Positions 7,048 to 16,100 of a DNA stretch of 16,100 nucleotides are shown here, one piece after another. Source of the DNA: an uncultured archaeon (GTDB lineage: Archaea > Iainarchaeota > Iainarchaeia > Iainarchaeales > CSSED10-239). The stretch covers positions 1-16,100 of the forward strand of contig CAZPGO010000018.1 in the NCBI GenBank assembly GCA_964586355.1, in the 5' to 3' direction. Numbering within the stretch: position 1 is the first letter of the stretch; each line of letters opens with the position of its first letter. The translations under genes and the position numbers were made by a program. The notes beneath the pieces were generated by a model, which was not told the origin of the DNA, made no database searches, and saw nothing but the letters and a program-made list of their open reading frames with translations.

Positions 7048-8154
7048 TTAGATTTTATAGTTTTTAAGAAAATCAGCCTTAAACTTATTAAAAGTACCAT
7101 TTTCTATATGCTTTCTAGAATCTTCCATTAATCTATGAAGAAATCTTACATTATGTTCTGATAAAAGAATCTTTGCAGCTGCTTCATTTAATCTATATAA
7201 GTGATGCAAGTAAGCTATTGTGTGGTGTTTACAAGCATAACAATCACAATCCTCTTCTATTGGCTTAAATATGTGTGCATTATAGCTCTTACCTATCTTT
7301 AAAAAACCCTTTCTAGTAAATATAACACCATGTCTTGCCATCTTAGTTGGATAGATAGAATCAAAACAATCTACTCCTTTTTCTATTGAAATGATCATAT
7401 CTTGAGGTGAACCAACACCCATCAAATACTTTATTTTGTTTTTATCTAAATGTTCTAAAGAATAATCAATAGCTTTATACATATTATTCTTACTCTCACC
7501 AATAGCAAGACCACCAATAGCCAAGCCATCAAAACCCATATTGTTAATAGCAAGAGCACATTCTTTTCTTAGATCTTTATAAACACCACCTTGAACAATT
7601 CCAAAAACTTTTTGCTTTTTGTTTTTATGAGAATCTAAACATCTTTTTGCCCAATCAATAGTTCTTTTTGTAGCATCTTCAAACTCTTTTTTTGAGTGAT
7701 CTGGTCCTAAAACATGGTCTAGAACCATAGCAACATCTGAACCTATAATATTTTGATTATCCATTAATTTTTCTGGAGAAATAAAGTGTTCTGTTCCACA
7801 AAAAGGAGATCTAAATCTTACTCCTTTATCATTTAAGGATACTAAAAACTCCGGATCCAATAATTGAAAACCACCACTATCAGTAAAAATTGGTTTTTGC
7901 CAATTGATAAAGTTATGATAGCCTTTTGCTCTTTTTATGGTCTCAAGACCTGGTTTAAGATATAATAAATAGGCATTGGAAATAAAGCACTGAGTATTAA
8001 GATCTTCTAAAGATCTAAAAGTTAAAAATTTGCCAGCACCTTTAGTAACAACTGGCATATAAAAAGGAGTTTTTATTTTTCCGTGACTTGTTTTAAAGAT
8101 CCCAGATCTTGCCTGTTTTGATTCATTTGTAATTTTAAACATAATCTTTTCCAT
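7048..8154 (-). CDS. tgt: tRNA-guanine transglycosylase, catalytic domain only, bacterial/eukaryal (queuine-type) sequence flavour
   Basis: The 368 aa protein contains TPFYMPVVTKG, FTDSGGFQ, GGLAIGES, YLMGVGSPQDM...GVDCFDSIYPTKMARHG and the zinc site CDCYAC...AYLHHL. These blocks match Tgt/QTRT1-type enzymes rather than archaeosine ArcTGT, which has VDSGSFQ and LFGAGHP and carries C-terminal C2/PUA domains. Confidence 0.85.
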   Translation of the reverse strand: MEKIMFKITNESKQARSGIFKTSHGKIKTPFYMPVVTKGAGKFLTFRSLEDLNTQCFISNAYLLYLKPGLETIKRAKGYHNFINWQKPIFTDSGGFQLLDPEFLVSLNDKGVRFRSPFCGTEHFISPEKLMDNQNIIGSDVAMVLDHVLGPDHSKKEFEDATKRTIDWAKRCLDSHKNKKQKVFGIVQGGVYKDLRKECALAINNMGFDGLAIGGLAIGESKNNMYKAIDYSLEHLDKNKIKYLMGVGSPQDMIISIEKGVDCFDSIYPTKMARHGVIFTRKGFLKIGKSYNAHIFKPIEEDCDCYACKHHTIAYLHHLYRLNEAAAKILLSEHNVRFLHRLMEDSRKHIENGTFNKFKADFLKNYKI

Positions 8155-9332
8155 TAAATTTTATTTCTATCTTCTAAATTCTTTAAAACAATTAACTTCA
8201 TTAACTTTGTAAATTCAAAATCATTTCTTCTTTCAGAAAGTTTTGTTTGTCTCATATAAACATCAAAATAACCTGCAGGGATATTAACTAGCGGAAAACC
8301 AAACTTTACTAGAATTACAGAAAAGATAGCTCTTGAAGTTCTGCTATTTCCATCAATAAAAGGATGTATTCTTTGAAATTCATTATGCAAGTATGCTGCT
8401 TGTTCTATTATTTTACTTGGTTTTTCTTTTTTTGACATTACTTCTAATAATGTTTTATTAAACTTATCTAAAGACAAAGACAATTCTTTCCAATCTGTTG
8501 TTTTAAAATTAGGATTTCCTTTTATGATTACATTTTGTTCTCTAATTTTACCTACGCCGTAATCTAATGAGGCCATTGCAATCTTATGAAAAGCTAATAT
8601 ATTTTCTAAATTAATATCTTTAGTTAAAAGAAAATTTAAAGCAGTTTTGTAATTTTCAGTTTGTTGAATATCCTTATATAAAGGAACATTAGGAGTTATA
8701 TTTTCTCTTAATAACTTTTCTGTTTGCGGTAAAGTTAAAGTAATTCCTTCTAAAGATAAACTTGTATATACAAAATTAATGTGATCAGGTAAAGAAATCT
8801 TTTGTTTTTTTTTATATCTTGAATATTCTTTTTCTATCTTTGTATCAATGTCTAAATCATCATAATCTAATTTTGTTTTAGTATTTATATTTAAGAAAAA
8901 CTTAATTAATAAATCAGTAAAATTAGAAGGAATTATTCTTGCTTTTAATGGCCTTTTTGATTCTATAAATACCATTCCTGCTTTTGATAAATAATCGTTA
9001 TATTTTTTAATAGTTTTACTGTTAAACAAAGTAATATCTAAATATTTTTTAGAATAACCAGATGAAAGATATTTTGCTATATTTTTAGAAACAATTACAT
9101 TATAGTCTAAACCATTTTTAAAACAAAAATAAACTAATGAGAAAAGCTCTTGTGATTTTTGTTTATTTATTGAATAATGGTTGTTATCATTTATAACTAA
9201 GCTTTCTTCTTGTAATTTATTTAGATTATTATAAATTGATAAATAAGTAGCAGACGGAAGTTCTTCTCTTATCTCTTTTATTGTTTTTTTTGATAAAGCA
9301 ATTATTAAAAAAACATCTAGTTTTGTTGGCAT
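8154..9332 (-). CDS. Fic/DOC family protein with an N-terminal winged-helix-like domain
   Basis: The Fic active-site motif HPFIDGNSRTSRA matches HxFx(D/E)GN(G/K)RxxR, with Ser in place of Gly. An upstream S-x-x-x-E-G element (SLSLEG) matches the class II auto-inhibitory helix motif. The N-terminal roughly 60 aa (KKTIKEIREELPSATYLSIYNNLNKLQEESLV) looks like a wHTH. Its stop overlaps the tgt start (TAATG). Confidence 0.85.
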   Translation of the reverse strand: MPTKLDVFLIIALSKKTIKEIREELPSATYLSIYNNLNKLQEESLVINDNNHYSINKQKSQELFSLVYFCFKNGLDYNVIVSKNIAKYLSSGYSKKYLDITLFNSKTIKKYNDYLSKAGMVFIESKRPLKARIIPSNFTDLLIKFFLNINTKTKLDYDDLDIDTKIEKEYSRYKKKQKISLPDHINFVYTSLSLEGITLTLPQTEKLLRENITPNVPLYKDIQQTENYKTALNFLLTKDINLENILAFHKIAMASLDYGVGKIREQNVIIKGNPNFKTTDWKELSLSLDKFNKTLLEVMSKKEKPSKIIEQAAYLHNEFQRIHPFIDGNSRTSRAIFSVILVKFGFPLVNIPAGYFDVYMRQTKLSERRNDFEFTKLMKLIVLKNLEDRNKI

Positions 9333-9422: not shown

Positions 9423-10262
9423 TTAAATTATAAAAATATTATAAATCAAAATAGAAACAACACCTAGAAGTATATAGATTCCAAACCTTGGAAGATAATC
9501 ATAGATGGGAATTGATTTATATCCTAATTTCTTAATCTTCTCAATATCTTCTATTTCTAGAACTGCTCTTTTTTCTAGACCTGTTTCTTTTAATAAATCT
9601 TTATTACAAAACTCAATAGCTAAAACGTCTCCTTCTTCAAGTTTTGAAATTGGTTTTCTTCTTAAATAAATAAACTCTTTAACTTCATCTTCTAGAACCA
9701 TAACAATACAACCAAAAAACATTGGTGGGATTGTTAGGTATAGGTATTCAGGTAATCCTTCTTTAGCTACTGCATAGAAACACAATGCTAAGAAAAGAAC
9801 AAAGAAAAGGAGTGATTGAATTATTTTTCCTTTCTTTTTTTCTAATAATTCTTTTGTTATTTTTATTTTCCCATATAGTTTAATTATATAAGTTACTGAA
9901 ACAAACAACACTGACAAAAGAGAAGAAGCAATAATTGCCCATAAGATAAATAGTTGTCCTCCTAGATACGGTAAGATCATATGTATTCCAAGAAACAACT
10001 TAATATCCCCTCCACCAATCTTTCCATAATAGTAGGCGATGTAGCCAAAGACATAGATTGCTAGAGCTATTAAGAGAATTGACAATACATCCAGCCAATA
10101 GAAAGTAAAAAGATTAATAATTAATCCAATCACTATCAATGGAAGACTTATCCAATCAAATATATATCCTGTCTTATTATCATAATATGCCGCTAAACCA
10201 ACTGCAAGCAATAATGCAATAACTCTAATAATAAAAATTGTATCAAACATCATAGCACTCAC
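9423..10262 (-). CDS. A24-family aspartic peptidase (archaeal prepilin/preflagellin peptidase, PibD/FlaK/EppA-like)
   Basis: The 279 aa polytopic membrane protein has a first Asp region (AAYYDNKTGYIFDW) after TM1 and the second catalytic motif GGGDIKL (GxGD). A soluble insert of about 60-70 aa sits before the last TM helix, as in FlaK-type enzymes. Confidence 0.75.
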   Translation of the reverse strand: MSAMMFDTIFIIRVIALLLAVGLAAYYDNKTGYIFDWISLPLIVIGLIINLFTFYWLDVLSILLIALAIYVFGYIAYYYGKIGGGDIKLFLGIHMILPYLGGQLFILWAIIASSLLSVLFVSVTYIIKLYGKIKITKELLEKKKGKIIQSLLFFVLFLALCFYAVAKEGLPEYLYLTIPPMFFGCIVMVLEDEVKEFIYLRRKPISKLEEGDVLAIEFCNKDLLKETGLEKRAVLEIEDIEKIKKLGYKSIPIYDYLPRFGIYILLGVVSILIYNIFII

Positions 10263-10317: not shown

Positions 10318-11820
10318 TTAAGATAATTGATATATTTTATTTATTTTTCTAAGATAATAATTGGCATTTTTAATTTGCTCAGTTATAAAAATTCTTTTCC
10401 CAGTAAGTAATATTTTATTAATCATGAAGATAGATTTAAACAAATTAACAAAAATATAATTTCGGGTTTTATTTAAAGAAAAACCAAACCATTTATTTAA
10501 AAGAAAAGCATCAGCCCCTAGAACTCTAAAATATCTACCAACATCTAATAAAACAATTATATTTTCTTGATTGTTCTTAAAAAATAGACTCTGGTTTTGA
10601 AAATCAGTAATATTGTTTGAATATTTATCTGTTATTTTATTATTTTCAAAAATAAAAAAATTAAGTAAGAAAGGATTATCCTGCTTTAGCTTTATAATTA
10701 ACTTTTCACTTTTAGTGTATTTAAGATAACCTAAATAACTATTTATTGATCTTATAAACGCAGACGTAAATTTAAAATCAATTACCTGAATGTTATTTAC
10801 AAAATAATGACTTTTCTTCTTAAATTTATTTACTTTTCTAAAAATGTTATTCACCACTCTGTTCCTTGGTAAAAGATAGCTTGGTTTAATTATGTAACCT
10901 ACAAAATTTATTCCTGATGTTATTGGTTTTAGAATAGTTATTGGTTTTAATTTAAGATCTAGTTTCTCTTTTATAAACTCCTCAATCTTTTTTTTCAAAA
11001 GTAAAAGTTCTTCTTTTGATTTTGAAAGTATTATAAAATCATCAACATATCTTACATAGTGTTTAATTTTCAGTTCATGTTTAATGTATTGATCTAATTT
11101 ATTAAGATAAACGTTTGCAAAAAATTGACTTGTTAAATTGCCTATTGGTAGCCCTTTATTCTCATTTACATTAAAAAGAGTTTTATGTTCTGGAACACCT
11201 GCTTTTTTCCAAGTTAATCCTTTTTGAAAATAGTTGTTTGTTGGATTATGAAAGATTATAGTTTTTGTAAGCCAAAGCCAATTTTTATCTTTTATTTTTT
11301 TACTTAACATGTTAAATAATATATTTTTATCAATACTCATAAAAAAATTATGAATATCTAGTTGTAAAAAATACGCTTTTTCTTTTGAGTTTTTTGTAAT
11401 TTGTCTAGTGAAAGTTTGTGCTCTTTTTACTGCTTTTAAAGTTCCTTTATCTTTTCTACAAGCATAACTATCATAAATAAATATTTTTTCATAAGTGGGA
11501 TTTAAATAATTATAAAGTAGATGATGAATAACTCTATCTTTAAAATCAGCAGCAAAAACCTCTCTTGGTTTTGGATCAGTTATGGAAAAACAAACAGAGC
11601 GAGCTGGTATATATGTTTTATTATTTAAACAAACTACCAACTCTTGTAAATTACTTTCCAGATTGACTTCAAATTTTAAAGCATTAATTGTATTTCTTTT
11701 ATTTTTTCTACAATCTTTATATGCTTTATAAAGCTCCTCAAAAGTAAACTCATGTTCACGGACACAACGCACTTGTTTATCATTAGTCTTATTGTTGTTG
11801 TTGATGTTTCCATTGTTCAT
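10318..11820 (-). CDS. DGR-type reverse transcriptase with a C-terminal MutS-domain-I-like extension
   Basis: RT motifs present are PREVFAADFKDRVIHH, FLQLDIHNFFMSID, LPIGNLTSQFFANVYL (the [ILV]GxxxSQ signature of DGR RTs, aa 225-232), YVRYVDDFIIL (YxDD, aa 258-261) and INFVGYII. Residues about 405-482 resemble MutS domain I. The first roughly 23 codons lie inside the TR, so the true start is uncertain. Confidence 0.9.
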   Translation of the reverse strand: MNNGNINNNNKTNDKQVRCVREHEFTFEELYKAYKDCRKNKRNTINALKFEVNLESNLQELVVCLNNKTYIPARSVCFSITDPKPREVFAADFKDRVIHHLLYNYLNPTYEKIFIYDSYACRKDKGTLKAVKRAQTFTRQITKNSKEKAYFLQLDIHNFFMSIDKNILFNMLSKKIKDKNWLWLTKTIIFHNPTNNYFQKGLTWKKAGVPEHKTLFNVNENKGLPIGNLTSQFFANVYLNKLDQYIKHELKIKHYVRYVDDFIILSKSKEELLLLKKKIEEFIKEKLDLKLKPITILKPITSGINFVGYIIKPSYLLPRNRVVNNIFRKVNKFKKKSHYFVNNIQVIDFKFTSAFIRSINSYLGYLKYTKSEKLIIKLKQDNPFLLNFFIFENNKITDKYSNNITDFQNQSLFFKNNQENIIVLLDVGRYFRVLGADAFLLNKWFGFSLNKTRNYIFVNLFKSIFMINKILLTGKRIFITEQIKNANYYLRKINKIYQLS

Positions 11821-11856
11821 ATTGATGTTGTAGGCATTACCTGCCCCATACTCCGT
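11753..11856 (-). repeat. DGR template repeat (TR)
   Basis: The 104 nt align without gaps to 12535..12638 (offset +782). On the coding strand the TR is adenine-rich (about 43 A by my count). In the VR frame it reads T E Y G A G N A Y N I N M N N G N I N N N N K T N D K Q V R C V R E, with 11 AAY codons. Confidence 0.92.
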
Positions 11857-11990: not shown

Positions 11991-12377
11991 TTATTTCACA
12001 TTTACAATTCCGGGCGTCTCTGTTTGTTCTCGCTTTTGCGAGCATAATAGCCAATTGTTGGCTTGAGTGGTAAGATTAGTTATTAATTTTGAAACATACC
12101 CGTGTGAATTTTTATTAGGAAAACCATTTATCTCTTGACATAATCTTACAACTAATTTTAATTCTTCAATTAGAATTATCAATTCTTGAATATCTGCAAT
12201 TTTTTTATTAGATACATTTGCTCTTATTACTTGCATTGCTATTTGTCTGGATTTGTTTTTTAGATCAGTTCCTATTGTAAACTTATTACCTTTATCAAAA
12301 TTTTTAACAATTTTTTCAAAATACACAGCCAAATCAAAAGAGGACTTATAAATTGCGAGGTTTTCATAATTAACCAT
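11991..12377 (-). CDS. avd: Avd-like accessory variability determinant (four-helix-bundle protein)
   Basis: The 128 aa protein sits between the target gene and the TR, as avd does in BPP-1. The N-terminal pattern YKSSFDLAVYFEKIVKNFDKGNKFTIGTDLKNKSRQIAMQVIRAN fits the four-helix-bundle (23S rRNA IVS-protein-like) family that includes Avd. Confidence 0.72.
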   Translation of the reverse strand: MVNYENLAIYKSSFDLAVYFEKIVKNFDKGNKFTIGTDLKNKSRQIAMQVIRANVSNKKIADIQELIILIEELKLVVRLCQEINGFPNKNSHGYVSKLITNLTTQANNWLLCSQKREQTETPGIVNVK

Positions 12378-12429
12378 TCTTAATCACACCACAGTTACCT
12401 TTTGCATTTTTCAAAAAAATTGCAACAAA

Positions 12430-12521
12430 AGTCACACCCCGCTGGGATGTGACTTTACAGACTCCCAAAACAAGACAACCGCTGGTTGTCTTGTTGTCTT
12501 TGACAAGCTTTGCTTGTCAAA
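12430..12521 (-). other. Three consecutive stem-loops immediately 3' of the VR/target stop codon
   Basis: Hairpin 1 (12430..12454): agtcaca-c-ccc / gct / ggg-a-tgtgact, 10 bp with one mismatch. Hairpin 2 (12469..12495): aacaagacaacc / gct / ggttgtcttgtt, 12 bp perfect. Hairpin 3 (12499..12521): tttgacaagc / ttt / gcttgtcaaa, 10 bp perfect. Hairpins 1 and 2 share the apex ccgctgg. Confidence 0.8.
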
Positions 12522-12530
12522 AACCATTGC

Positions 12531-13382
12531 TTACTGGTCACGGACACAACGCACTCGTCCACCATTGGTCTTATCGGTGCTCTTGATGGCCCCAGGCTTC
12601 ATATCGATGCTGTAGGCACTACCTGCCCCAGACTCCGTGCTTGACCAATAATCGTCACTTACTAACGAGACAAAGTTACTGTTTGTCGCTAAAATTGCTG
12701 CATTCATACAAGCATTAGATTTAGTTTGCGCAGTACATGCCTCCCAAATAATCATTAACTGACTAGCAGATGGAAGATACCAATCTGTGTAACCATTTGA
12801 ATCTAAATTATCACAATAATCCATTGCTTGTTGCCAATTCATAGTAGTTGTGTTTTGATCTGGCTGAATGTATAGCTTGCTATTCCCAAACATCACATAT
12901 GGCAAATCAACAATCGGCGCTGTGTAGTTGTTGGTTATGTTTTTTATACCTATATATTGATTGCTTGTTGTCTGTAAAATGATTGTGACTTTGGTGTTAG
13001 TAGTTAACCCTAACTTAGAAAAATCTGTTAAGGAGATAACATTTGTTCCTTGCTTTAAGGTGTAAGGGGATGAAAGATTGGTGTCTGAACTTTCTCCAGC
13101 ATCGGAAATTACCTTATATTTACTTATTACTAATTCTCCAAAATTACTTTGAGGAGAATAACTGAATTGAAGAACTCCGTCTTGTAAGGCTTTTGGATAA
13201 ATAAAAGCTTCTGCATCGGATTGAGTAAGTTCAGCAACTGTTGTTTTATTTAAGGCATCAGTTGTAAACATCTTTCCCCAATTTAAGACAATAGTCACTA
13301 AAATGACTGCAACAACGATTAACAGAATTGCTGCAATCAATGGAGAAACAGATTTTTTTCTAAAGTTTAATTTTGATTTCAT
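12531..13382 (-). CDS. DGR target protein: class III signal peptide (archaeal type IV pilin N-terminus) plus a DUF1566/C-type-lectin-fold-like variable C-terminal domain
   Basis: The N-terminus RKKSVSPLIAAILLIVVAVILVTIVLNW matches the archaeal pilin N-terminal pattern (R/K-x-x-SP-hydrophobic helix). The C-terminal half, MNWQQAMDYCDNLDSNGYTDWYLPSASQLMIIWE...DYWSST, resembles DUF1566 (Lcl C-terminal-like) domains known as DGR targets. The VR covers the final 34 codons. A GAGGT Shine-Dalgarno-like box lies about 10 nt upstream of the ATG. Confidence 0.85.
   Translation of the reverse strand: MKSKLNFRKKSVSPLIAAILLIVVAVILVTIVLNWGKMFTTDALNKTTVAELTQSDAEAFIYPKALQDGVLQFSYSPQSNFGELVISKYKVISDAGESSDTNLSSPYTLKQGTNVISLTDFSKLGLTTNTKVTIILQTTSNQYIGIKNITNNYTAPIVDLPYVMFGNSKLYIQPDQNTTTMNWQQAMDYCDNLDSNGYTDWYLPSASQLMIIWEACTAQTKSNACMNAAILATNSNFVSLVSDDYWSSTESGAGSAYSIDMKPGAIKSTDKTNGGRVRCVRDQ
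12535..12638 (-). repeat. DGR variable repeat (VR) at the 3' end of the target gene
   Basis: 84 of 104 positions are identical to the TR. Of the 20 differences, 17 fall where the TR coding strand has A. The 3' (coding-direction) 17 nt gtgcgttgtgtccgtga are identical in both and GC-rich, which is IMH-like. The VR encodes TESGAGSAYSIDMKPGAIKSTDKTNGGRVRCVRD, the last residues of the target. Confidence 0.92.
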
Positions 13383-13477: not shown

Positions 13478-13495
13478 ATATATATATATATATAT
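13478..13495. repeat. (AT)9 dinucleotide microsatellite
   Basis: The run atatatatatatatatat lies in the intergenic region between the srp54 stop and the DGR target gene start, about 100 nt upstream of the target ATG. Confidence 0.8.
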
Positions 13496-13558: not shown

Positions 13559-14986
13559 TCACCTAAACTTTAACTTCTGCTTCTTCATTCCTTTCATGTT
13601 TGCAAACTGACTCATGTCCATTTTAGAAAGATCTAAACTATTTGGATCAAGTTCACCATTTTGACCTTGGAATTGCTTTGCCATTCCTTCCATTTTCTTA
13701 GTATCCATGCCTTTAAACATTTTCTTCATTTTCTTAATATGCGAAGATAGTTCTTTTACTTCTTCTAAACTTGTTCCAGAACCCTTTGAGATTCTGTCCA
13801 TTCTTGAACGAGTAAGAAAGTCAGGACCATTTTTAAGTTCTTCTTTTGTAAAAGATTCTAAAATTGCTTTATATTTATCCATCTTTTTTTGACCAACATT
13901 CATTTGATCATTCGAAATCTTATTTCCAACACCTAAAAAACCTAAAACCTTTGAAAAAGGACCAAGTTTTTTTGAAAATTCTAACTGTTGTTTAAATACT
14001 CCAAATGTAACATTTCCTTTCAAAAGTTCTTCTGGATTAATATCTTTTATTTTTTCTAGTTCTTCTTCTTGAGTTACTTCTGAAATCTTCTCCATTAAGC
14101 TTTCAAGATCTCCAAACCCAAGAACTCTTGAAAGATATCTATTGGAGTCAAAGATTTCAAAATCATCTGCTTTTTCTCCAGTTCCAATAAAATAAACAGG
14201 AGATTTAGTAATATAACAGGCAGTTAGCGCACCACCACCTTTAGCAGACCCATCAAGCTTTGTAATAATAACACCGTTAACACCAATAGCAGTATTAAAA
14301 GCAGTTGCTTGATCTTTAACAGCTTGACCAATATCTGCAGAGATTACTAAGAATGAAAATTTAGGAGTAAACACATCATTTATTTCCTTAATCTCTGTTA
14401 CTAGCTCAGAATCTAAGGCACTTCTTCCTGCTGAATCAACAATAATTAAGTTACATCCGTTTTTCTTATGAACCTCAAGTCCTTCTTTAGTAACCTTTCT
14501 TGCAGATTTTTCATTAGTGTTTCCATAAAAATCAACATCAACCATTTCAGACAATTGTTTTAATTGTTCATAAGCTGCTGGTCTATATGTGTCTGCACAA
14601 ATAACACCAACCTTTAATCCTCTCTTCTTATAGAACTTAGCAAGTTTTGCTGCAGTTGTTGTCTTTCCTGAACCAAACAAACCACAAAGAAGAATTGTTT
14701 CTGGGTTTTCAGGAAGTAGAGTTTTTACTTCTCCACCCATATATTTTAGAAGAGTTTCATAACATAATCTAACAATATGTTCTTTTCTTGTTATTCCCGA
14801 AGGTATTTCAACAAAGGCTTTTTCTTCAATTTCTTTTGAGATATTTAGAACTAGTTGTATATTTACATCTGAGGAGATTAAAGCTCTTTGAATCTCCTTA
14901 ATTACTTCTTTTATTAGATCTTTGTCTACATGCATAGAATGTTTTACTTTATCTAATGCATCTCTTAGTTTATCTCCAAAGCCCAT
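13559..14986 (-). CDS. srp54: Signal recognition particle protein SRP54
   Basis: The 475 aa protein has an N domain, the G-domain motifs GLFGSGKTTTAAKLA (P-loop), DTYRPAA, DSAGR and TKLDG, and a Met-rich C-terminal M domain (MKKMFKGMDTKKMEGMAKQF...MDMSQFANMKGM). Confidence 0.93.
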   Translation of the reverse strand: MGFGDKLRDALDKVKHSMHVDKDLIKEVIKEIQRALISSDVNIQLVLNISKEIEEKAFVEIPSGITRKEHIVRLCYETLLKYMGGEVKTLLPENPETILLCGLFGSGKTTTAAKLAKFYKKRGLKVGVICADTYRPAAYEQLKQLSEMVDVDFYGNTNEKSARKVTKEGLEVHKKNGCNLIIVDSAGRSALDSELVTEIKEINDVFTPKFSFLVISADIGQAVKDQATAFNTAIGVNGVIITKLDGSAKGGGALTACYITKSPVYFIGTGEKADDFEIFDSNRYLSRVLGFGDLESLMEKISEVTQEEELEKIKDINPEELLKGNVTFGVFKQQLEFSKKLGPFSKVLGFLGVGNKISNDQMNVGQKKMDKYKAILESFTKEELKNGPDFLTRSRMDRISKGSGTSLEEVKELSSHIKKMKKMFKGMDTKKMEGMAKQFQGQNGELDPNSLDLSKMDMSQFANMKGMKKQKLKFR

Positions 14987-15144: not shown

Positions 15145-15426
15145 CTATTTTAAAAAAAGACCTTTAATAAAAGATCTATTATTCTTAAAAACCACAAAAG
15201 ATTTTGATATTTTATTATTTAAAATTAAGCCTATAGTTCCAGAAGTTTTATCAGAACTATTTATTTCATTAAAAACATCTGCTTGATTTAAATCTTCTTC
15301 AATCACTATTCTATTTCTAGATTTTGTTGAATTTTGTATTAAAAATATTGAAACTAAAACAGCCCCAAGAATAACTATTCCTAACAAAATAATTATTTCT
15401 ATTGATATTTGTCCTTTTTTTACCAT
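15145..15426 (-). CDS. Small class III signal peptide (type IV pilin-like) protein
   Basis: The 93 aa protein starts MVKKGQISIEIIILLGIVILGAVLV. This is the KGQ-x-S-x-E motif followed by a hydrophobic helix, as in EppA/PibD-processed archaeal pilins (DUF361-like). Confidence 0.65.
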   Translation of the reverse strand: MVKKGQISIEIIILLGIVILGAVLVSIFLIQNSTKSRNRIVIEEDLNQADVFNEINSSDKTSGTIGLILNNKISKSFVVFKNNRSFIKGLFLK

Positions 15427-15449: not shown

Positions 15450-16100
15450 TTATTCTTTAACTTCAATATAAAGAGGTTCTAAATATCTTTTAGTTGAAAA
15501 AGGATCCTCAATATAATAAACAAACTTATAATTTCCTGGAGAATTACATATTACAGAATTTTCAAAACTATAAAAATCCTTAACTTCACTGGTACTACCT
15601 AATTCCTCATAAAACCCAGAACCACTTGAAGTACCTTGATCAGAATAACACTCTTCTGTGGATTCATAATAGTTAGGACTAGTCTCCTTTTGAATACTTA
15701 AATTTTTAATCCCATAAGAAGAATTTTCGAGAATAGTTTCATAAGAATAAATAAAAATTGTAAACTCTTCTCCTGGTGATCTTACTAAACCTGAAGAATA
15801 TGCAAAAGCATCACTTATATAAATGTTAACTGGTGAACTCCAAGAAACAACACCATCTTTTTTACCAGAATATCTTATTTGATATTCTCCTTTAGCTCTA
15901 CAACTAATTTCTGGAAGTATTAAATTATATTCAGATATCATAGGATCTAAGTTAATTCCAAAACTACCAATAGAGACAAGAATTAAAATTTCTCCAAAAC
16001 AATCATTAGTTAGCACAAACGAAGCACCTTGTTTTTTTTTAATTTCTATTTCAGTAATTTCTGTTCCTTCTTTGTAATTTGAGGTTAGATTAAGATCAAA
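15450..16100 (-). CDS. Hypothetical secreted/surface protein, C-terminal part (ORF open to the right edge)
   Basis: The ORF track starts it at a GTG (16016). However, the same frame translates without a stop through 16017..16100 (FDLNLTSNYKEGTEITEIEIKKKQGASF-VLTND...), so the gene most likely begins outside the window. It is Ser/Tyr/Glu-rich and I recognise no family. Confidence 0.5.
   Translation of the reverse strand, partial: FDLNLTSNYKEGTEITEIEIKKKQGASFVLTNDCFGEILILVSIGSFGINLDPMISEYNLILPEISCRAKGEYQIRYSGKKDGVVSWSSPVNIYISDAFAYSSGLVRSPGEEFTIFIYSYETILENSSYGIKNLSIQKETSPNYYESTEECYSDQGTSSGSGFYEELGSTSEVKDFYSFENSVICNSPGNYKFVYYIEDPFSTKRYLEPLYIEVKE

Follow-up and report, generated by a model that had tools for sequence, protein, structure and literature searches.

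A predicted modular type IV pilin as the target of a diversity-generating retroelement in an archaeon

On what kind of protein does the diversity-generating retroelement (DGR) of the archaeal contig CAZPGO010000018.1 act, and does the prepilin peptidase gene lying beside its reverse transcriptase (RT) gene belong to the same system? These questions are raised by a 16,100-nt stretch of this contig, referred to below as the window, in which an open reading frame (ORF) at 12531-13382 encodes the protein that carries the variable repeat (VR). The ORF is present on the minus strand, as are all genes discussed here, and its translation gives the N-terminus quoted in an earlier annotation made from the nucleotide sequence without database searches (the sequence-only reading). 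We consider it rather likely that its product is a type IV pilin of modular, archaeal type whose head is diversified by the DGR, and that the A24 peptidase gene is a housekeeping neighbour placed beside the RT gene by insertion of the cassette. A hypervariable binding surface would then probably be displayed on a pilus.

The pilin module of the target protein

The target and its parts, as distinguished by profile searches, structure prediction with AlphaFold2 (AF2; confidence given as the predicted local distance difference test, pLDDT) and comparison with the template repeat (TR), are as follows.

12531..13382, minus strand: DGR target, a type IV pilin-like protein of 283 aa with modular build (leader, alpha-1 helix, beta-sandwich and C-type lectin (CLec) head), assigned from the ORF and from Lcl_C and pilin profile and fold matches
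13350..13382, minus strand: predicted class III leader, residues 1-11, MKSKLNFRKKS, with predicted cleavage between S11 and V12
13254..13349, minus strand: hydrophobic alpha-1 helix (pilin core helix), residues 12-43; AF2 helix at 14-43
12930..13232, minus strand: beta-sandwich globular pilin domain, residues ~51-151; AF2 strands, pLDDT 80-90
12534..12908, minus strand: Lcl_C/DUF1566 head of C-type lectin fold, residues 159-283, assigned by AF2, Foldseek and Pfam
12536..12638, minus strand: VR, residues 249-282, a 103-nt repeat of the TR

This architecture is common to about 37 full-length homologues. At the N-terminus of the target (RKK-S/V-SPLIAAILLIVVAVILVTIVLNW, where the slash, here and below, marks the predicted cleavage site) a basic leader with Lys at position -2, a small residue at -1 and a hydrophobic residue at +1 precedes approximately 22 hydrophobic residues. 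The -2, -1 and +1 positions are important for class III signal peptides (PMC3387779), and the combination found here, i.e. K/R at -2, a small residue at -1, a hydrophobic one at +1 and a helix directly after it, is that of a class III leader. There is no Cys among the first 189 residues of the target and hence no lipobox. The sequence-only reading, according to which the protein is neither a Sec substrate nor a lipoprotein, is supported.

A profile of the family compared with sequences of the PDB matched the type IV pilin of P. calidifontis (8FK7) with E = 9.9e-6 over residues 6-50, including the segment KG/LEPIVAAVLLIVVAVI. Weaker profile matches were obtained for 8rey_M, Natrinema PilA2 (8gi2), 9myg, Iho670 (5kyh), 3j1r and an H. 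volcanii pilin (8fj5). The mature chains of 8rey_M (VSPIIAT...), 5kyh and 3j1r start at the profile position equal to V12, and cleavage is predicted between S11 and V12 for this reason. The alpha-1 helix is the most conserved segment of the family (entropy of 0.74 bits). When the full-length AF2 model was compared with solved structures using Foldseek, the top matches were archaeal type IV pilins (8fk7, 6nav, 6w8u, 6w8x and 8tib; probability 1.00), with alignments of approximately 147 columns that cover the whole pilin and with modest TM-scores of 0.43-0.45 on target length. Residues 1-155 of the target match whole archaeal type IV pilins by both sequence profile and fold, and it is on these matches to solved archaeal pilins, not on curated models, that the pilin assignment rests. 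The pilin-like character proposed by the sequence-only reading is supported by the match to 8FK7 as well as by the Foldseek results.

The C-terminal head and its variable surface

Residues 177-281 match Pfam family Lcl_C (formerly DUF1566) with 60.5 bits, against a cutoff of 34.9. A separate AF2 model of residues 159-283, built from 64 sequences, reached a pLDDT of 94.6 and a predicted TM-score (pTM) of 0.87, and its best Foldseek match was the C-terminal domain of Legionella Lcl (Lcl-CTD, 8q4e; TM 0.72, E = 1.6e-7), followed by snaclecs, LLT1, LOX-1, NKG2A, invasin InvE and Bdellovibrio Bd2740. In the profile search of the PDB, the head gave a match at E = 7e-6. The Lcl structure was called CLec-like by its authors (PMC11162425). 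Both the CLec fold of the C-terminal domain and the position of a hypervariable DUF1566/CLec surface at the extreme C-terminus (the VR covering residues 249-282 of 283) had been anticipated from the sequence and were confirmed by the Lcl_C match above cutoff and by the head model.

The VR spans the last four predicted strands of the head. Four lysines of Lcl, K369, K380, K385 and K391, bind glycosaminoglycans, as established by mutagenesis (PMC11162425). They align gaplessly to target residues 251, 262, 267 and 273 (Lcl numbering is that of the 8Q4E chain + 236 in a gapless HMMER alignment, verified on W315, D316, D319, R342, F343, E344 and E368). All four target residues correspond to TR-adenine codons (TAT, AAC, AAC and AAT, respectively) and, with 2.4-3.3 bits, are among the most variable columns. 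Within the predicted strands, variable positions (258, 260, 262, 265, 267 and 269) alternate with conserved ones (257, 259, 261, 264 and 266), which fits the presence of the variable residues on one exposed face of a modelled sheet. On this alignment, the VR positions correspond to the surface by which Lcl, the homologue of known structure, binds its ligand; their placement on the surface is based on the Lcl binding residues and on the i/i+2 periodicity in the predicted strands. Host cell surface glycans are plausible ligands of the head.

The DGR cassette

The remaining components of the cassette were found directly downstream of the target gene.

12428..12524, minus strand: three consecutive GC-rich hairpins just 3' of the VR; DNA fold of -38 kcal/mol, z = -8.07
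11991..12377, minus strand: Avd-like accessory protein, 128 aa, matching bAvd and DivGenRetAVD
11754..11856, minus strand: TR, AAY-rich, overlapping the 5' end of the RT ORF
10318..11820, minus strand: DGR RT, 500 aa, with a MutS_I-like C-terminal extension; RVT_1 75.3 bits

With target, Avd-like protein, TR and RT, the DGR appears complete. The TR and VR differ at 20 positions over 103 nt, and these mismatches affect 17 of the 42 adenines compared with 3 of the 61 other bases (Fisher p = 9.5e-6). Adenine-mutagenic copying is assumed on account of this adenine specificity. Of the three remaining differences, the single T>C mismatch is explained by a TR polymorphism, because the ACT of the window is replaced by ACC in the TR of the otherwise identical contig L009. 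At the two positions with C>G mismatches, the allele of contig L095 agrees with the TR.

RTs of the DGR type are marked by the motifs [I/L]GxxxSQ and YxDD, and the protein encoded here contains IGNLTSQ at residue 226 and YVDD at residue 258. A MutS_I-like extension (residues ~407-488, nt 10357-10602) scored 19.7 bits in this RT, against a cutoff of 20.6, and 37.5 and 36.1 bits in the orthologues of L001 (11507-13084) and L098 (1786-3300), respectively; the shorter RTs of L003 and L004 are without it. Three RTs with such an extension, as well as a separate MutS-like accessory gene, have already been noted by Wu et al. 2018 (PMC5758913). The scores of the Avd-like protein were below the cutoffs of both models (bAvd, 36.3 bits, cutoff 40; DivGenRetAVD, 37.9 bits, cutoff 80, E = 1.7e-9); its gene lies between target and RT in all related cassettes, and this conserved position and the size of the protein would suit an Avd.

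The TR overlaps the start of the RT ORF (11820), and the first ~22 annotated RT codons (MNNGNINNNNKTND...RCVRE) are TR sequence. The same overlap was observed in L001 and L003. Translation of the RT may in fact begin at an in-frame GTG near the 3' end of the TR.

The triple hairpin was kept 3' of every related VR, including that of an orphan target without a nearby RT, and shows three compensatory pair changes; the other copies lie at L001:10880-11021, L003:10862-11005, L004:10859-11005, L005:10943-11100 and L007:9071-9210. In two of the three hairpins an AGC loop is closed by CC/GG. A single hairpin/cruciform downstream of the VR is known from the Bordetella phage DGR, and the structure found here is larger than that one. 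By analogy, the triple hairpin may be a cis-acting element for recognition of the target in retrohoming.

In the metagenome-assembled genome (MAG) GCA_035387745.1, a second pilin-DUF1566 gene (L005:10001-10945, protein P0029) has neither Avd nor RT beside it and is located on a contig other than that of the L004 cassette. The VR of P0029 matches the TR of the L004 cassette, and the two share the 3' end GTGCGTTGTGTTCGTGA and the same triple hairpin. P0029 is likely a remote target diversified in trans, judging by these sequence matches.

Natural variation of the target

The allele carried by L095 (JGI 3300077564; its protein is P0077) differs from the window at 27 of 1012 nt. As many as 26 of these differences are confined to the 103-nt VR, 23 of them at TR-adenine positions, and the remaining 744 nt of the ORF together with 160 nt downstream are identical except for ORF nucleotide 731. 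Among 25 homologues, codons that correspond to AAY in the TR have an entropy of approximately 3 bits, compared with approximately 0.7 bits at codons without A, and the interleaved scaffold residues Y257, M261, G264, K271 and VRCVRD are nearly invariant. From these alignments we take the DGR to be real and to have been active.

The change at nucleotide 731 of the L095 allele (D244V) is located 14 nt upstream of recognizable TR homology. In L007 (6638-10885), SRP54 is followed by a target and a truncated Avd, and then by a second copy, 141 aa long, of the C-terminal part of SRP54 (SRP_SPB) and a second target; either the boundary of the cassette has been duplicated, or strain variation in the VR has led to a chimeric assembly. 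Protein P0092 (154 aa), which at first seemed to be a "stand-alone" pilin module, was rejected as a truncated target on a contig of 2x coverage with Avd and RT downstream.

The A24 peptidase gene and the probable insertion site of the cassette

The genes that bound the cassette, together with those following the peptidase gene, are listed below.

13559..14986, minus strand: SRP54 (Pfam SRP54, SRP_SPB and SRP54_N), upstream boundary of the inserted cassette
9423..10262, minus strand: A24 prepilin/preflagellin-type aspartyl peptidase (Peptidase_A24, 39.4 bits, cutoff 26.5)
8154..9332, minus strand: Fic/DOC protein with a long N-terminal region (56 bits), between A24 and TGT
7048..8154, minus strand: archaeal tRNA-guanine transglycosylase (TGT)

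As pointed out in the sequence-only reading, an A24 peptidase gene follows the RT gene on the same strand; its start is 55 nt (GTG) or 67 nt (ATG, as called by JGI) after the RT stop codon, and the Peptidase_A24 score leaves its identity in little doubt. The catalytic aspartates, assigned by motif as D28 and D86 (G83-G-G-D86, GGGD86), are invariant in an orthologue of 61% identity. Neither the protein nor a three-sequence profile matched a FlaK or PilD structure in the PDB. A24 is the probable processing enzyme of the target.

The further suggestion that the peptidase belongs with the RT was not supported. On contig L005, which is part of MAG GCA_035387745.1, genes for prefoldin and FtsY and a small ORF are followed by SRP54, A24 and TGT; the gap between SRP54 and A24 (the 61%-identical orthologue) is 8 nt, and there is no DGR at this site. 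The window has the same backbone, with a 3.3-kb target-Avd-TR-RT block between SRP54 and A24. Other cassettes, belonging to three lineages, are located at two further chromosomal sites and have no A24 gene nearby: that of L001 between DUF1015 and DUF4349, those of L003 and L004 between an AAA_14/DUF4143 gene and FKBP26_IF/proteasome genes, and that of L098 upstream of a proteasome gene. In L009 RT and A24 are arranged as in the window, and in L007 the target comes right after SRP54 and the contig ends before any RT or A24 gene. Since L005 lacks a DGR at this site and the other cassettes occur elsewhere without A24, the RT-A24 adjacency is best explained as a by-product of insertion of the cassette between the housekeeping genes SRP54 and A24. 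RT and A24 may be co-transcribed. The tempting inference drawn from their proximity is corrected accordingly: the peptidase is a neighbour by insertion and not a gene of the cassette.

A second insertion is represented by the Fic gene located between A24 and TGT; in L005 these two genes are adjacent, and a Fic gene occurs at another place, beside AbiEii.

A proposed family of modular pilins

Short pilins of 153-162 aa with a closely related N-terminus occur in tandem after a T2SSF (PilC/TadC-type) platform gene in L017, a contig not linked to the genome of the window, and similarly in L091. One of the L017 short pilins is 56% identical to the target over residues 2-61, leader included. The module also occurs in a 547-aa protein of another MAG (44% identity over residues 7-147, E = 7e-30), where it is followed by GLUG repeats.

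A phmmer search with residues 1-158 against 1.84 billion representatives gave 196 clusters, 46 of them at E <= 1e-10, in proteins of 62-1271 aa in which the module is nearly always N-terminal; these relatives are listed as P0213-P0355. The heads identified by Pfam among 90 relatives are GLUG (18), ConA-like lectin (12), Lcl_C (7), FGE-sulfatase (6), M26_N (6), CHB_HEX_C_1/Fn3_assoc (6) and RCC1 propellers (5), as well as PKD, Kelch and PT-HINT. We propose on the basis of these matches that there is a large and apparently undescribed family of archaeal modular pilins with a shared N-terminal module. Some target homologues bear the JGI automatic label "flagellin-like protein", so the N-terminal signal is detectable by routine annotation.

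CLec-type domains known to contain DGR VRs include FGE-sulfatase and C-type lectin domains, DUF1566 being category d/CLec2 (PMC5758913). GFRCVVVP[EQ] is the C-terminus of the pilins with FGE-sulfatase heads, of which P0046 is encoded in a pilin cluster. The contigs of these pilins are too short or have neither an RT nor a repeat, and the pilins are at most candidate DGR targets.

The pilus loci of L091 (167-1600 and 3124-4530) and L017 (34-2620 and 4123-5562) comprise a T2SSF fragment and three or four tandem short pilins, and then divergent small proteins with KKG[FQ]-type leaders, which are likely minor pilins. Genes encoding tRNA-intron-endonuclease, DUF357 and TP_methylase proteins intervene in both loci. 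The pilin cluster of L091 is closed by an FGE-sulfatase-headed modular pilin.

Proposed mode of action and alternative explanations

In the mechanism that we propose, the precursor would be inserted in the membrane and the leader MKSKLNFRKKS cleaved by A24 between S11 and V12. The alpha-1 helix and beta-sandwich, a complete pilin module, would then enter a pilus built mainly of short pilins, with a short linker carrying the DUF1566/Lcl_C CLec head. Given its bulky head, and by analogy to PilB of S. sanguinis (PMC8179133), the target would most likely be a subunit that is minor, exposed at the tip or incorporated sparsely. By reverse transcription that mutates adenines, the chromosomal DGR (Avd, TR and RT) would copy the TR into the last 34 codons, and retrohoming would alter approximately 19 residues of the head, giving rise to lineages or a population with pili of differing binding heads. 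A broader picture, which we put forward tentatively and with somewhat more doubt than confidence, is that of a common DPANN modular-pilin chassis with many grafted heads, in which DGRs were recruited at least twice (for DUF1566 and FGE-sulfatase heads), type IV pili display an antibody-like repertoire, and the triple hairpin marks genes, including remote ones, for retrohoming.

Several observations may be held against the assignment of the target as a diversified pilin. The comparison with archaeal pilin N-terminal families, which the sequence-only reading had suggested as a check, left the target below the curated cutoffs (Pilin_N, PF07790, 17.5 bits, cutoff 25.2; TIGR02537, 16.3 bits, cutoff 20). 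Pilin_N was matched at E < 0.01 by 9 of 25 family members, and it did not match the short pilins P0040 and P0044, which have the same N-terminus, nor three of the four tandem L017 pilins; since these short and operon-encoded pilins are also missed, the curated models appear insensitive to this clade, and we do not count their scores against the assignment. A FlaFind-style regular expression gave no match in any of the 25 family members, the Pro at +3 being the obstacle; we judge this form of the pattern too narrow, because the corresponding positions of solved archaeal pilins read VSP.../LEP.... The target has Ser at position -1, compared with Ala or Gly in 24 of 25 aligned relatives; Ser recurs there in a 147-aa pilin within a pilin gene cluster (KQKS/VSP) and in four larger relatives ([KR]S/VSP). 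The full-length AF2 model has a mean pLDDT of 64, and its domain orientation is unreliable. No pilus ATPase or platform gene was found within the window. Archaeal class III leaders are also present on non-pilus proteins, e.g. the sugar-binding proteins of the Sulfolobus bindosome (PMC3387779). As regards diversification, seven contigs from different samples carry the locus of this strain and the VR is identical in six of them; rampant diversification is not seen in assembled consensus sequences.

Several of these points, namely the Ser at -1, the sub-threshold pilin models, the lack of assembly genes in the window and the Sulfolobus precedent, would be in line with the rival view that the N-terminus is an uncleaved signal-anchor, or is cleaved without polymerization, the protein then being a membrane-tethered or bindosome-like surface lectin. 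We regard this as rather unlikely, as the homology to filament-forming pilins is not limited to the helix but takes in their entire beta-sandwich, leaders of the [KR]S/VSP type are found on the clustered short pilin and on FGE-type relatives, and the FGE-sulfatase-headed P0046 is encoded in a pilin cluster. If the target does enter a pilus, it could instead be the major body pilin, so that hypervariable lectin heads cover the entire filament. Owing to the linker (approximately residues 152-160), the head might stand out from the surface of the filament, and incorporation into the body with a flexible linker was left open by Raynaud et al. (PMC8179133). However, the head-less short pilins with the same alpha-1 helix, arranged in tandem in related loci, are better candidates for this role, and bulky-headed bacterial modular pilins clash in the filament body and were modelled at the tip (PMC8179133); we consider a major pilin improbable.

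The same applies, to a slightly greater degree, to the idea that A24 is a dedicated DGR accessory, co-inherited and co-transcribed with the RT in order to process the diversified pilin. The common strand, the spacing of 55-67 nt, the identical arrangement in L009 and the L007 cassette, which also follows SRP54 and may precede an A24 gene, are in its favour. They are outweighed by the uninterrupted succession of SRP54, A24 and TGT in L005, by the DUF4349 or FKBP26_IF/proteasome genes that follow the cassettes of L001, L003, L004 and L098, and by a TATA-like, AT-rich stretch (TTTATAAA) in the RT-peptidase spacer that permits a separate promoter. It is hardly credible, finally, that the protein is a receptor-binding protein of a virus or provirus with its own DGR, like Mtd of the Bordetella phage. 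DUF1566 domains are common on IMG/VR contigs and the chromosomal site of the cassette varies between lineages, but its neighbours are SRP54, A24, TGT, AspRS, exosome, histone and proteasome genes, with no viral genes among them, and the best 80 IMG/VR matches cover the DUF1566 part only, none having the pilin module. The cellular flanks and the lack of a pilin module in these matches agree with the view of the sequence-only reading that the target is not a phage tail fibre.

Comparison with known systems

The closest parallel to a pilin with a diversified head is provided by the type V pilin DGR targets of Bacteroides (tip or hybrid; bioRxiv 10.1101/2024.11.15.621889), in which a CLec C-terminal head on a pilus subunit is likewise diversified. 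Those DGRs, like the present one, are cell-encoded and associated with a MutS-like function; they also include Avd, to which the Avd-like protein found here would correspond. However, type V pili are lipoprotein-processed strand-exchange polymers of Bacteroidota, whereas the scaffold here is built like a type IV pilin of archaea, having a predicted class III leader and an alpha-1 helix, and the MutS-like function of Bacteroides is a separate gene (Msl), whereas here the MutS_I-like part is fused to the RT. LdtA of Legionella pneumophila, in category "d" of Wu et al. (PMC5758913), also has its VR in a C-terminal DUF1566-type CLec domain of a surface-exposed protein; it is a lipoprotein of the outer membrane, in contrast to the target, whose display via a pilin module is predicted. 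In Nanoarchaeota, AvpA (Paul 2015, Handa 2016) is another CLec-fold variable protein of an archaeal DGR, for which these two papers mention no pilin, signal peptide or membrane segment, unlike the target described here.

As regards the pilin module, PilB (vWA) and PilC (ConA-like lectin) of S. sanguinis (PMC8179133) also consist of a small pilin module, a short linker and a C-terminal adhesion head with predicted tip display, and ConA-like lectin and M26-related heads are common to bacterial modular pilins (PMC8179133) and the archaeal family. The bacterial proteins differ in having an N-methylation motif (IPR012902) and no hypermutation, and their survey (PMC8179133) did not include archaea. 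Solved archaeal type IV pilins (8FK7, S. islandicus 6NAV, P. arsenaticum 6W8U, 8FJ5 and 5KYH) share the leader, alpha-1 helix and beta-sandwich, but are 130-300 aa long and, unlike the target, have neither a lectin head nor a DGR. The head shares the DUF1566 CLec-like fold of Legionella Lcl-CTD (8Q4E; PMC11162425; TM 0.72), whose glycosaminoglycan-binding lysines align with DGR-variable positions; Lcl itself, a trimeric adhesin on a collagen stalk, differs in that its head is conserved.

DGRs in DPANN archaea, DUF1566/CLec targets and MutS_I-like C-terminal extensions of RTs are already known (PMC5758913), as are CLec folds in archaeal variable proteins (PMC5006420), and DGRs have been reported to be common in DPANN archaea and bacteria of the Candidate Phyla Radiation (CPR). 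A G-type pilin domain (bacterial type II secretion system) is mentioned briefly as one of the domains that carry a VR (PMC11661182). No description of a DGR target that is an archaeal type IV pilin was found in the full-text searches, in Wu 2018, Paul 2015, Handa 2016, Roux 2021 and Makarova 2016, or in a 2026 survey of archaeal type IV filaments; the Paul 2017 survey of DPANN and CPR lay outside this coverage and may mention pilin-like targets. The sequence-only reading, which knew of no characterized pilin-scaffold target in archaea, is in agreement with the DGR and filament surveys covered. Likewise, archaeal modular pilins as a family were not described in the full-text searches and key surveys, Paul 2017 again being outside their coverage. 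The new element would accordingly be the use of a modular type IV pilin of archaea as scaffold by a DGR, parallel to the type V pilin targets of Bacteroides.

A pilin with a hypervariable lectin head offers a testable route of display, through a class III signal, A24 cleavage and incorporation into a pilus. It would link DGR diversification to the structure presumed to serve many small archaea in attachment, and would extend the concept of "modular pilins" from bacteria to archaea. Pilus subunits with DGR-randomized CLec heads would have arisen both among the type V pili of Bacteroides and among the type IV pili considered here, which are unrelated to them.

Neighbouring genes and the host

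In the direction of transcription, the gene order of the window is the 3' part of a gene for a 571-aa protein, a 93-aa protein, SRP54, target, Avd-like protein, RT, A24, Fic and TGT. The two genes farthest upstream are as follows.

15450..16100, minus strand, continuing beyond the window: 3' part of the gene for a 571-aa protein, whole in L008; N-terminus, outside the window, MINKKAQVSIEV... (MINKKAQVSIEVTIILAILVIGAV...); weak Class_IIIsignal match (E = 0.027)
15145..15426, minus strand: 93-aa protein with the class III-like leader MVKKGQ/ISIE... (Class_IIIsignal 21.6 bits, cutoff 23.7, E = 2e-4)

The sequence-only reading had regarded the latter as a second pilin-like gene. The ORF and its class III-like leader are indeed present, but the Class_IIIsignal score is below threshold, and the leader is of a type other than that of the target. 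The 571-aa protein encoded just upstream is a third one with a leader of similar kind.

The nearest named relatives of SRP54 belong to Ca. ainarchaeum (64% identity), Ca. Diapherotrites and Micrarchaeota, and as these relatives carry labels of DPANN lineages, the host is identified, by this marker, as a DPANN-type archaeon. The cassette is flanked by cellular genes (SRP54, TGT, AspRS and RadC). The G+C content is approximately 25% across the window and approximately 35% over target and Avd. Scans of the window with Rfam and for tRNA genes gave no matches, and a scan for bacterial promoters and terminators is uninformative for an archaeon.

The 176-nt spacer between SRP54 and the target contains an (AT)9 microsatellite (13478-13495, minus strand) as well as long poly-T and poly-A runs. 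These sequences could be either a promoter/TATA region or a slippage-prone tract.

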